This document shows, one piece after another, positions 4,084-60,721 of a stretch of 64,000 nt of DNA; the stretch's first letter is position 1, and every line of letters starts with the position of its first letter. The DNA comes from Octopus vulgaris (taxonomy: Eukaryota), in the NCBI GenBank assembly GCA_951406725.2, contig OX597831.1, forward strand, positions 17,298,001 through 17,362,000, given 5' to 3'. The notes beneath the pieces are model-generated. The model was not told the origin of the DNA. It searched no databases and saw nothing but the letters and a program-made list of their open reading frames with translations. A program made the translations under genes and the position numbers.

Positions 4084-4123
4084 ATGCTAGAATTTTTTGT
4101 TATAATATCTGCGCTCATTGCTG
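4084..4123 (+). CDS. Gene D coding exon 1 (signal peptide [13 protein letters not shown])
   Basis: accATG start context; ends CTG|gtgagt, phase 1. Confidence 0.75.
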
Positions 4124-7100
4124 GTGAGTAACTGGAAAATTTGTTATGAATATATACTCTTTTAAAACTATCTGTACTTATTTTCATATTTCCACACAAG
4201 TACATATATATACATACATACATGCATACATACAAACATATATATATATATATATAAAAATTGAGGGAGATAAATTAATATTAATTTTAATATCAATTTA
4301 AAACCAGTAGTACAGCATTCAAAAAATCTGAGGAGTCAGAGAAAATTCAAATATATGTGTATATTGGCAGGGCTGGCCTGCTACGTAGCCGGCCAGAATG
4401 CTAGAAGAAGATCATCAACGCTCAAACTACAAGGGAAATTCTCTAGATGAAGAATTCTGGTGTTCGCTGAATTCTTCCTCTAGAGAATTCCCCTTGTAGT
4501 TTGATCGTTGTTGATCTTCTTCTAGCATTCTGGCCGGCTACCTAGCAGGCCAGCCCTGCAATAATATATATATATATATATATATATATATATATATATA
4601 TATATATATATATATATATATGTATGGACACCTGGGCTGTCGGTGTTTCTTCTTACCCTACTCATTGTTATCTGCGCTTAACATATACAGAACCAATTTC
4701 TCGTGATTTTTCTGTCCAAAAGAGGCTCATTCGTGAGACGTGAAGGCACATAAGAGAACATATTCACTCTCTGTCATTGATTGAACTTGGAAATTTTATG
4801 AGAAACCCATTGACCCAAGTCAATGCTAGCTCATCAAGAGTTACAGTGTGATTTTGTTCTACCATGGATGGCAACACATGCTCGTCAAGCCCTACCCAAC
4901 TTCCGTGGGGTGACTCGCCTTCTAGGCTGTAGTTGACGCTGGCTTATACTTATTGTCTGATTCCCATATCATGCATTAATTATTCTTCCTCTTTCCGTTG
5001 GGTTGTTATATTTATTGAACTCATAAATCAAAACATGCCGGATACCCTCCTTTTATTGCTTTGAAAAAATAACTATTTATATCGAACTGCACACTTCAAA
5101 ACTTTCACTAAGAACAGAGACATGATAAAATTGCTCCCCATTTTTATAGCAAGTTGACACGGGTGGTTTATCCAGACTCCCTCAGAATCTTCTTTCATGC
5201 AATTGAAAAACCTGCTTAAATTATATCAGGACCTAATATATATATATACATAAACATATACACCCCCCAAACATTTATACATATATACATTCATATATAT
5301 ATATATATATATATATATATATATATATATATATATATATATATATATATATATACATATATACACATATATACAATGTGTGTGTATTGGTGTATATATA
5401 TATATATATGCTTATATATATATATATATATGTGTATATATATATATATATATACGCACACATATATATATATACATACATATATATATATATATATATA
5501 TATATGTATGTATATATATGCATATATATGTATATACATACAGTATGTATATATATATATACAGAGAGTGAGAGAGTAACACAAACATACAGATAGAGGC
5601 AGCGTATAATCGGACCCTTGATAGTCTGATTGTGAAATCGGTCGGTTTTAACTATTTTAACATTCATTGCGGGAATTGATAATCGCTTTCATGTACTGTA
5701 GATTGTTCCATATGTTTTTTTCTGTGGTTTAATAATATTTCACAACACCGTAGTGTATTCCTTTTAGGTTCGGCGTCAGAATTCTGTCACTCAGCAAGCA
5801 GGGAACTCTGCGTTGCTGCTTATAAAGCATTTCCTTCAAACAAAACAGGAAAAATATCGTGCAGGTATATATGTTTATAGATATCTACAATATTTTATCG
5901 TATATGTATATCGTATCAACATCTATAGTGATTTAATATTTGCATCGTAAAGTATTGGCATTGAGACGACGAATACCCTCAGTAATATGTTATTTCAATC
6001 ACAGTAATAATGTTTGCAGTTAGTTACTCTGACATGAGTTTCGATCTTCATGTAACCGTTCCCAAACTGAAAAGTGTATGTTTAATTCATTGCAAAATAT
6101 TTTTGCTTATACGTACATACAAAAAAAAAGTTATACATAAAATAATGGGGTGCAATACAAAGAAAGAAGGATTTGCAAGAAATTGAAGAGCGGGTAAGAA
6201 TTCTCTTAAAGACGAGATAACTACTTCCGGGCATATTATCTATTATCATTATTGACAGAAACTGTAGCGCACCTCATTAAAGTGACTATGTGATACAAAT
6301 ATTCGAAGCTGAGTATACTTATTTTGACTGCAAGTCTGATAAGGCTACACCAGGCACATGCATCACAATGACTTGTGCACGACATGGTGATCTTCTATCA
6401 AGAGTGACCTAGCTGTGGCACAGTCCCAATTTTTCTTTAGGTGGAGTAACAAAAGGTCTCTGTATAATGTTTAAGAATGCTGAACGAAGCACCCATATCC
6501 TGAGGTGTGTTTTTCCAATCCAAACGAATTTCTCTCAAAACATGGCTTCTATGCTCTCCCAATATTTCTTAACTTGATCGGAGACACACATATCCTCAGC
6601 TACTAAGAGATAACTCAGCTGATTAACGTGAGCAACTGGCAAGTAAATCTGTGGGATTGAGTAGAATTTTTGCTATAGCCTATCTTTTACAGCAAGGCAA
6701 ATCACTTCGCATTATAATAATAATAATAATAATAATAATAATAATAATTTTTATTCTCCTTCTTCTTCTTCTTCTTCTTCTTCTTCTTCTTCTTCTTATT
6801 ATTATTATTATTATTATTATTATTATTATTATTATTATTATTATAATTATTATTATTATTATTATTATTATTATTATTATTATTATTATTATTATTATTA
6901 TTATTATTATTATTATTATTATTATTATTATTGACTGAGAGAGCAGTGCATGCCATCAAAGTGACACTGGAGTAAAATATGCGAAGCCCAGTATATCCAA
7001 CATGAATACCCGTCTTATAACGGTACACGAGGAACAAGCATCACAATCAATTCTGCGCGACATGCTGATCTCATATCAAGATATAGAGCGCATGACCTTG

Positions 7101-58040: not shown

Positions 58041-58795
58041 AGAAAACCCATGCACGGAAAGAAACGCAAGCACGCGCCCGTGCACACACGTACCAACGCA
58101 CACTAGATGAAACAAACACAGAAATGAAAACACAGTCATATAGAGAGAGGAATAGACAGATAGATAGATCTATCGATAGATAGACAGATAAATATATATA
58201 TATATATATATATATATATATATATATATATATATATATATATATATATAGAGAGAGAGAGAGAGAGAGAGAGAGAGATGATATTTCAACGTTTATCAGT
58301 AAAAGTTTCACCTATTATTACCATCAACAATACCTTGAAACGAACAAAAAGGAACGCAGTGTAAATAACGGACAGTCAAAACTATTGAAAGAGTTGGAAG
58401 AGGTAAATTTTAGGAAGAAAAAAGAAAAACGTGGAAATTTTACCGTTGAGTGTGTTACATAATAAGGCACAAAAAGGAAATGACTCTCACCAGACAATAG
58501 AAAATGCTTCAACACCAGAACTCATATAAAGAATCTTGCAACCAAATCCAAAACAGAAATCTTGAATATTTTCTGGTTGATTTTGTAACCATTAGTTTCA
58601 AAATTGTAATCAGTAGATGACCTTGAAGTTAGAAGAATGAAGAAAATATGAAACAGAGAAAGTAATAAGATTCGGGTGTTTACTTCCTTCGCCACGGATT
58701 TCAAATAACTAGCATTTGTTGAACCAATAAAAATTACAGAACAATGCAAAGAAATCGTTATTGCATAATTCTTTTTTAACTTTAAATTAATAACA

Positions 58796-60721
58796 TTATA
58801 GAGTAAAGACAAGAGGAAATGATATTCTTTGACCAAACATCTGAAACGAGAATCGTAGACAATGCATGCATTTAAATTCAAAGTAACTTGGTATAAATTA
58901 TACGAGACAGTTTTTGTTTACAGAAGGGAAGTCTAAAATGTGCATAGTCTGCCTATTGAGGATTAATGCCAGAGCTCTGCATTCTTGCATTCATTAATTT
59001 GAATGTTACAGCATTTCAACTTTTACTAGTAACTGACATCTGCCAGTTCACAGCGACTTCAAACACAAGTACAGACGTTCATGGGCGACAGACAAATGAT
59101 TATAAATCAAGTATTCAATGATATTAGTTTATCGCCTGAGAATTTTTACTATATTCACTTCAAGGCATTTTGCATGGCAACGAATTCTTCTCGGTGCAGA
59201 CGGATCTGTTCACGGGAAAATCTGAAACTGTGTAAAGCAGGTGCAGTTGCTTTTATTGGATCTTAATTAACACCGTATTGCCGTATTGCCTTTATCACTC
59301 TGACCTAGCGAAAACGACACAAGACACCCATACGAACCTACTCCTAATAAAGTCAAGTTGTTTCATTTGTAGGAATGTTGATAGACTATTGGGATGCAAA
59401 GTAATTGTGCTTATTGACTGCCTCCAAAAGGGCCATAATATCAATGGATGGTAATATGACAATTTGCTGATTTAAGGTGAAAATACCTATTGACACACAA
59501 CGCCCAGGAAAACAGACGAAACGACTTATGTTCTATAAGGAAAATGATCCAGCACAAACGTCAGTGTTTTTCATGGCTGCTGGTATTTGAACTCGTAATT
59601 ATGCCATTTATTCTCCTAATTTGGTCCCATCTCATTACCATCCACTCCCAAAACCAACAGTATTATTTGCTGGCATCCCCTCTCACTATCAATAATTCAC
59701 CAATATAAGGCGGCGAGCTGGCAGAATCGTTAGCGCGTCGGGCGAAATGCTTATCTTTATTTCGTCTGCCGCTACTTTGTGAGTTCAAATTCCGCCGAGG
59801 TCGACTTTGCCTTTCATCCTTTCGGGGTCGATTGAGTAAGTACCAGTTACGCACTGGGGTCGATATAATCGACTTAATCCGTTTGTCAGGTTCTTGTTTG
59901 TTCTCTCTGTGTTTAGCCCCTTGTGGGTAGTAAAGAAATAGGTATTTCGTGTGTATTTACGTCCATATTCCTTTTGGAAGAGATTAATTAAATACCAGTT
60001 GTGTACTGGGGTGGATGTAATAGACTGGTCCGCTCCTCAAATATATCGGGCCTTATGCCTAGATTAGAAAAGAATAATTCCTCAATGTGAGAGAAATAAT
60101 TTGCTGGCATCCTGTATCGCAATAATGAGGCAGTGATATCACCAAAAGGATTACAGTTTTTTCATGAATGGAATACGCGCACTAAAACAGCGCAGGAAAT
60201 ATGCATGTATTTTTCACTCAATCCTTGTATATTCATCTGGTGTTGAGATTCACCAGCAAGCTTATTGAACTAGTTCCTGATACCTTTGAATTTGAGACCC
60301 AAACATCAGGATGAAGTTACCATGAATTCAATGATCATATCTGAGTCTGGTAAGTTCAGTCTGGCGCATGATGACACAGAGTTACTCGTTCGAGCTACTT
60401 GTACGCGATAACTAATTCACTTATTCAGGTCTCAGGAACTTTACAAGGTATAAAGCAAAACACTTGAGGTATTACTAGAGCTGCTGGAGATTATAGAAGT
60501 ATTCTATATATTACAACTTTCACTATCTGAAAGTAATTCCTGAATATCATTAGATACTTCTCTCACCCAGAAAATTTATTGTTAAATGTCATAGGAGAAT
60601 ATTTTTTTCCTATAAACATATTCGGTTTAATTTAAGAATGAAACCCTGAATAGTAAAAATATTTTGAAGCAGTAGCTACAATAAAATGAAGTACATCATT
60701 ACTCTTAGACGTGTTTTCTGT
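58796..60721 (-). CDS. Gene C (3' part only): microexon 60695-60721 (TENTSKSND) and terminal exon 58796-58840 (MFGQRISFPLVFTL*); upstream exons not found in the window
   Basis: Same repeated intron unit, 27-nt microexon (ttgttttcag ... GAT|gtactt) and homologous terminal exon. Stop falls earlier than in A (TAA where A has TTA). Could be a pseudogene or continue beyond 64000. Confidence 0.65.
59709..60080 (+). mobile_element. tRNA-headed SINE inserted in the mariner remnant of the gene C intron
   Basis: ggcggcgagctggcagaatcgttagc ... gagttcaaattcc; the sequence ataattc.c.caat flanks both sides. Confidence 0.8.

Follow-up and report, generated by a model that had tools for sequence, protein, structure and literature searches.

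The RGM N-terminal (RGM-N), CPG4 and DUF19 domains are extracellular six-cysteine helical units with a C-x8-C-x5-8-C core, usually found within larger or two-unit proteins, and RGM proteins are linked to glycosylphosphatidylinositol (GPI). Ly6/uPAR three-finger proteins such as lynx1 and quiver have 8–10 cysteines, a β-sheet fold and a GPI tail, and are clustered and fast-evolving. Neuritins are highly conserved and few. Neuritin is described in PMC6502786 as GPI-anchored and shed, promoting neurite growth, with activity-regulated neuronal expression. Human neuritin and NRN1L appear in file 4 of PMC9578707 with cysteine spacings of 9,24,8,7,27 and 9,17,8,7,27, respectively. Here we analyse a cluster of small six-cysteine protein genes in a window of 64,000 nucleotides (nt) of Octopus vulgaris DNA (assembly GCA_951406725.2, contig OX597831.1, positions 17,298,001 to 17,362,000 of the forward strand; coordinates below refer to the window). 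We class the products as a molluscan variant, undescribed in the literature searched, of GPI-type helical proteins with six cysteines; they have the general build of neuritin but are not shown to be neuritin.

Our best explanation for the cluster as a whole, to which we assign a probability of about 55%, is that it encodes GPI-linked, disulfide-locked helical ligands that cells carry on their surface or shed, with paralogues that differ in partner and reach. Each protein would enter the endoplasmic reticulum via its signal peptide, three disulfides would lock a three-helix bundle, and the hydrophobic tail would be exchanged for a GPI anchor. The 60-residue bundle, displayed on the membrane or shed, would serve as a trophic or contact ligand by binding a protein partner. 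Given a conserved scaffold and fast surface change, the paralogues would probably differ in partner specificity; two of them, A and B, would each have lengthened their stalk separately, by duplicating a frame-neutral micro-exon.

Organisation of the cluster

A preliminary description of this stretch had proposed three complete genes with GT-AG introns (D on the forward strand, B and A on the reverse strand) and part of another, C, represented by its 3′ end on the reverse strand. Gene models rebuilt from coordinates bear this out: D has 4 exons and encodes 111 residues, A has 6 exons (113 residues) and B 6 exons (112 residues), and GT-AG borders are present in 13/13 introns of these full models. 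The cluster spans from the first ATG at 4084 to the outermost exon edge at 60721, in a window of 33% G+C with many microsatellites. In coding order, the genes show an exon for the putative signal peptide, two exons that carry the six fixed cysteines, then a short stalk, a site of small residues and a hydrophobic C-terminal tail.

Exon sizes are 40/97/89/110 nt in D, 37/100/85/27/27/66 nt in A and 37/100/85/27/33/57 nt in B. All coding exons are therefore 110 nt or shorter, as previously stated, and the reported identity of exon sizes between A and B (37/100/85/27) holds for the first four exons. The first two intron phases are common to D, A and B (phase 1, then phase 2), and the cysteine pattern of the earlier account was recovered, with spacings of 7,16,8,7,11 in D and 7,13,8,8,9 in A and B. 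The product length of 111–113 residues stands for D; for A and B, 113 and 112 residues presuppose the inclusion of both micro-exons of the stalk, while with one micro-exon A would have 104 residues and B 101 or 103. That the genes are absent from a track of open reading frames is true but trivial, since an unspliced list would not show exons this short (up to 110 nt). Beyond the parts described here, profile scans detected no extra exon copies in the window, bar one tail remnant.

Alignment of the cysteine-bearing cores gave scores of 117 for A–B and 60 for D–A, each matched by 0/2000 shuffles in which the cysteines were held fixed. The absence of a micro-exon from D, together with its differing third intron phase, places D as the deepest branch of the cluster. 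Judged from their sequences, A and B are very probably real genes. Small multi-exon genes for surface proteins easily go unannotated or unnamed: for the three full genes here, the protein collections searched yielded a match to D and none to A or B.

Gene D and its relative in Octopus bimaculoides

Gene D lies on the forward strand. Its exon 1 (4084..4123, 40 nt) encodes the putative signal peptide, exon 2 (5768..5864, 97 nt) C1–C3, exon 3 (10900..10988, 89 nt) C4 within a CFR motif, C5 and C6, and exon 4 (11438..11547, 110 nt) the SAA site, the hydrophobic tail and the stop codon, which an AATAAA follows after 21 nt. We searched 1.84 billion representative proteins in HMMER with a 30-column profile of exon 3 and obtained four matches. 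One was a protein of 111 residues (E = 8.5e-5), XP_052830394.1, the RefSeq entry for the uncharacterised LOC128249882 of Octopus bimaculoides; the other three of the four were repetitive proteins and were dropped. No A- or B-like protein was among the four matches of this one full search.

XP_052830394.1 resembles D in length, cysteine positions, the SAA at residues 79–81 and the tail. The two proteins are identical at 73/111 positions without a gap, across all three exon junctions (11/13 residues in exon 1, 18/33 in exon 2, 23/29 in exon 3 and 21/36 in exon 4). This alignment supports the three junctions of D, as far as an automatic annotation allows, and D is almost certainly a real gene. 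At only 66% identity, XP_052830394.1 may be an orthologue that evolves fast and belongs to another octopus, or else a paralogue. The accession was not mentioned in the literature searched. D and A are convergent, their tails separated by 2.5 kb (11547–14030), and a fragment resembling a long interspersed nuclear element lies between them at 12182–12949.

Divergence between A and B

Across exons 2 and 3, A and B are identical at 112/185 positions (60.5%). The surrounding non-coding DNA is at least as alike, gaps being excluded from the intron figures: the flanks of exon 2 match at 123/164 positions (75%, p = 0.004 versus the exons) and the intron of the stalk module at 707/959 (74%, p = 0.0005 versus the exons). 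The introns contain about 2–3 gaps per 100 nt, while the coding sequence has no indel or stop across 222 nt. When neutral substitution was simulated at the A–B divergence, six cysteines and the absence of a stop were retained in 2/20000 runs. This pattern shows a scaffold held fixed and a surface free to vary; it does not prove positive selection.

One alternative is that A, B and C are decaying duplicates and D alone is functional. The ratio of replacement to synonymous substitution rates (dN/dS) between A and B is near 1, C stops early and lacks 5′ exons within the window, and HMMER found no A- or B-like protein. Against decay stand the uninterrupted coding sequence just described, the retention of six out of six cysteines, and the intact state of every splice site and of both A first exons, so that we regard this alternative as highly improbable.

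Predicted fold and membrane attachment

The structure of the 67-residue mature part of the O. bimaculoides relative was predicted using AlphaFold2. The resulting model is an all-helical bundle with helices at residues 2–12, 15–19, 27–42 and 46–59, a predicted local distance difference test score (pLDDT) of 80.7 and a predicted template modelling score of 0.66. In 11/12 segments the helical moment exceeded the strand moment. The fold modelled for the family is thus quite probably a helical bundle, in which the helix order makes the disulfides C1–C5, C2–C4 and C3–C6 likely. A Foldseek search gave 0 matches at E 0.001. In a VIA fold search the best match reached Z 6.1, with a root-mean-square deviation of 3.4–4.8 Å over 57–59 residues, to TPR-like chains; the best 50 of 48161 chains were generic helical repeats, with no neuritin or RGM chain among the matches listed.

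Signal peptide and GPI signal were judged by hydropathy and ω-site rules of thumb, and by this standard alone the earlier assignment of both features fits. Candidate ω sites lie 24–32 residues from the C-terminus in 4/4 proteins (A, B, D and the relative), in which the tail hydropathy is 1.5–1.9 (Kyte–Doolittle scale, 19 residues). From these sequence features, the proteins probably carry a GPI anchor.

Alternatively, the tail could simply hold the protein in the membrane or be cleaved off, with the mature bundle secreted as an effector, for instance a pheromone or a peptide of the skin or salivary gland. Exons that diverge faster than nearby introns are known in venom gene families, the stalks of A and B contain basic residues, and the tail of C is short. 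A GPI anchor is better matched by the small-residue triplet, which lies at GPI distance, occupies the same position in D and the relative, and is found in the tail-adjacent micro-exon of A, B and C. No cytoplasmic residues follow the hydrophobic tail and no toxin family was matched, leaving a secreted effector very unlikely.

Comparison with neuritin and other families

The preliminary description did not recognise a named gene family, and the searches agree: the full relative matched 0 Pfam families and 0 sequences in the PDB, where nothing credible was found otherwise. Exon peptides of A, B and D gave no NRN1 match in Pfam. A word-index protein search with exon peptides, a weak test, confirmed 0/63 and 0/96 candidates, the second search having missed the relative, which as a query retrieved itself only. 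Among metagenome contigs, 0/253 pattern matches were confirmed. The literature searched, which included few subscription papers, names the family nowhere, with the proviso that cephalopod proteome and single-cell tables could list the genes; neuritin and octopus together gave no literature match.

In the ESM Atlas, the relative ranked two unnamed mollusc clusters first, with scores of 0.91 (180/256 features) and 0.89, and neuritin third, with 0.84, which we treat as no more than a lead. The mollusc clusters (129 residues, 51 members; 115 residues, 66 members) are of similar length, their likeness resting on feature score rather than alignment. The exon-3 peptide reached a top score of 0.84 with an unnamed cluster. 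The family is locally expanded here, as had been suggested, yet the mollusc clusters, the RefSeq member and the neuritin-like build make it probable that it is not confined to this lineage. The role proposed in the same description, as cell-surface ligands or recognition tags, is putative.

Neuritin resembles the octopus proteins in several respects. It is likewise small, with a signal peptide, six cysteines and a GPI anchor, the peptide and the anchor being predicted by rule of thumb for the octopus proteins. D has the same central 8,7 core (C3-x8-C4-x7-C5), by counted spacings rather than direct alignment, and A and B have in common with neuritin a C-x-x-aromatic-E-x-F-x-x-C motif at C3–C4. 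In D, A and B the phase-2 intron falls in the codon that follows C3; NRN1 probably has its introns placed alike, one of phase 1 behind the signal peptide and one of phase 2 just past the third cysteine. The neuritin clusters of the Atlas are chordate, whereas the octopus genes are clustered and fast-diverging.

Taken together, shared ancestry with neuritin is a tentative proposition, a little short of even odds, and a neuronal role is unlikely. It is distinctly unlikely that the genes are true invertebrate neuritin/CPG15 relatives, expanded with alternative promoters and tunable stalks into GPI-linked neuronal or sensory identity or trophic ligands beside the cephalopod protocadherins. If the link to neuritin is true, a factor of synaptic plasticity in vertebrates would date back to early bilaterians, and cephalopod neurobiology would gain a new surface-ligand family open to testing. 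If it is false, the products of the cluster are still candidates for fast-evolving proteins of recognition.

The genes might instead have no special tie to neuritin and belong, as single-unit members, to a wider invertebrate group of six-cysteine helical proteins, or to a convergent mollusc family, with a role in skin, mucus, immunity or gamete recognition. The top-ranked Atlas clusters are mollusc-only, the outer cysteine spacings are unlike those of neuritin, and a helix with C-x8-C-x7/8-C is common to neuritin, DUF19, CPG4 and RGM-N. A fast surface on a fixed scaffold is, moreover, typical of immune and gamete recognition proteins. However, the profiles of the RGM N-terminal, CPG4 and DUF19/T20D4.11 domains were also unmatched in Pfam (0 families) and these domains were absent from the Atlas output, in which neuritin is the best named family; we find this alternative somewhat doubtful. 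Ly6/uPAR proteins, similar in size, signal peptide and GPI-type tail, do not fit, as the octopus proteins have six cysteines and are predicted to be all-helical. The C2-x3-C3 pattern of classic insect odorant-binding proteins is absent, no cysteine pair of the mature domain being three residues apart.

Several observations weigh against the view of the cluster as GPI-linked helical ligands of one family. The D–B core score of 32 is not significant (341/2000 cysteine-fixed shuffles equal it), and neither is the similarity of B to the O. bimaculoides relative with cysteines fixed (827/2000), so that B is joined to the family through A. The AlphaFold2 alignment had 5 rows only, the relative and four exon peptides of the window; the full-length single-sequence model was poor (pLDDT 45.4) and the Atlas model middling (0.58). 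Two of the last five residues in the relative's tail are charged. Intron 3 of A and B is 67% identical, not significantly different from the exons (p = 0.10), and dN/dS is 0.82–0.88, with synonymous sites (proportion of differences, 0.43) as diverged as replacement sites (0.38). Together with the exclusion of gaps from the intron identities, this means that positive selection is not established. The Pfam, Atlas and fold queries were the relative or exon peptides, and the full relative and its mature part matched no Pfam family, NRN1 included, at E up to 10, a range in which the Pfam filters remove most matches above E 0.1. The Atlas score of neuritin, with 148 features shared, is below the tool's line of 0.9, and a score of 0.8 is attained with shuffled proteins in a third of cases. 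Finally, the C1–C2 spacing is 9 in neuritin versus 7 here, and that of C5–C6 27 versus 9–11.

Structure of gene A

All exons of A lie on the reverse strand. Exon 1, encoding the putative signal peptide (22972..23008, 37 nt), has a second, intact copy at 22040..22076, alongside which about 300 nt of the upstream sequence are duplicated too. Both first exons thus have a conserved upstream region of their own, and from the sequence the second may represent an alternative promoter. Exon 2 (20192..20291, 100 nt) encodes C1–C3 and exon 3 (18641..18725, 85 nt) C4–C6. They are followed by stalk micro-exon 4a (18081..18107, 27 nt, phase 0-0), rich in Lys, Pro and Thr and lacking a small-residue site, by stalk micro-exon 4b (15654..15680, 27 nt) with the candidate ω site S86, and by the hydrophobic tail exon with the stop (14030..14095). 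That the small-residue triplet occurs only in the tail-adjacent micro-exon is expected if 4b carries the anchor site.

A search of sequencing runs with 17900–20400 listed 24 runs, none of the matching ones on record as RNA; 17 presumed-RNA runs overlap the region at small shares of 0.10–0.15, probably from repeats at 19.1–20.0 kb. Contigs from 4 of these 17 runs gave 0 matches to 16110–18755, which includes exon 3 and micro-exon 4a, a result that is uninformative on expression. Searches for non-coding RNA returned 0 Rfam and 0 transfer RNA matches.

Duplicated stalk units

The 3′ ends of A and B are built from a repeating unit of micro-exon, intron and tail exon, present as two tandem units in each gene. 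The upstream copy in A (16535..18182, reverse strand) ends in homology at a changed tail acceptor, AG to AC at about 16538–16539. In B the upstream copy (30920..33509, reverse strand) has a deletion of about 95 nt that takes in the tail acceptor, and a profile scan identified a remnant of the tail end and 3′ untranslated region at 30935–31010 (E = 8e-7). The units begin at different points upstream of the micro-exon, about 80 nt in A and about 370–390 nt in B. Differing breakpoints and differing lesions of the upstream tail acceptor indicate that the A and B duplications were independent events.

An unrooted tree of the units (722 gap-free columns) places the two copies of B together (support 96) and sets the two copies of A apart (85). 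Unit identity between A2 and B2 (0.686) is as high as that between A1 and A2 (0.683), and gene conversion could have shaped the tree.

Each of the five micro-exons measures 27 or 33 nt, a multiple of three, and is phase 0-0; the reading frame is therefore kept whichever of them is used. Inclusion of both would give a stalk of 18–20 residues versus 9–11 with one. A strict micro-exon scan on both strands gave five matches, four of which are micro-exons of the family. The parallel lengthening of the A and B stalks would be a clean case of duplication of a frame-neutral micro-exon fixed by loss of the competing acceptor.

Every micro-exon is followed by a block of about 1.6 kb, present in five copies with 63–70% identity. 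The possibility that this block is a decayed nested receptor gene on the forward strand was rejected in favour of a duplicated non-coding intron. Eight read-through frames matched 0 Pfam families, and one frame searched against the PDB gave 0 matches. Mismatches show no codon period (0.26–0.31 at lags 1–9), and most indels break the frame.

Genes B and C

Gene B is also encoded on the reverse strand. Its exon 1 (52854..52890, 37 nt) is the only other exon-1 copy on the strand and sits 15.5 kb from exon 2 (37257..37356, 100 nt), to which it is joined by a putative junction. Exon 3 (33671..33755, 85 nt), stalk micro-exon 4a (33091..33117, 27 nt), the in-frame micro-exon 4b (30521..30553, 33 nt), with SSS as candidate ω site at S88, and the hydrophobic tail exon with the stop (25605..25661) complete the gene. 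A decayed retroelement with reverse-transcriptase domains (Pfam RVT_1, zf-RVT; 26820–29360, reverse strand) occupies the last intron and splits the downstream module.

Of C, also on the reverse strand, a 27-nt stalk micro-exon (60695..60721) and a tail exon encoding a 14-residue tail (58796..58840) are present. One codon is deleted from the tail exon and its stop lies three codons before that of B. None of exons 1–3 of C was found within the window, and its homology to A and B stops about 240 nt upstream of the micro-exon. Judging by the sequence, C may belong, as the distal unit, to a gene that lies beyond the window, or it may be a relic. Short interspersed repeats occur at 59711–59940 and 53678–53901, and at 3017–3330, 33807–34120 and 55661–56024; one lies inside the module intron of C.

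Other elements in the window

An element of about 3 kb at 43548–46544 has inverted arms (43548–44003/46100–46544, 86% identity; 44376–44707/45762–46083, 88%) and an inner palindrome at 44005–44315, and looks like a non-autonomous DNA transposon. Dispersed AT-rich repeats at 1815–2537, 8229–8954, 10079–10472 and 41511–42307 occur in both orientations and are 70–91% alike. The forward strand at 37400–39988 contains long open frames, one of 421 residues, with no Pfam match at E 0.001; the 421-residue frame has what we take to be a GIY-YIG-like motif, suggesting a Penelope-type element. A decayed Tc1/mariner transposase lies at 54100–55250 on the reverse strand (HTH_Tnp_Tc3_2, E = 2e-4, below the cut-off). 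Between TA arrays at 47005–47816, short inverted repeats are nested around 47081–47386.

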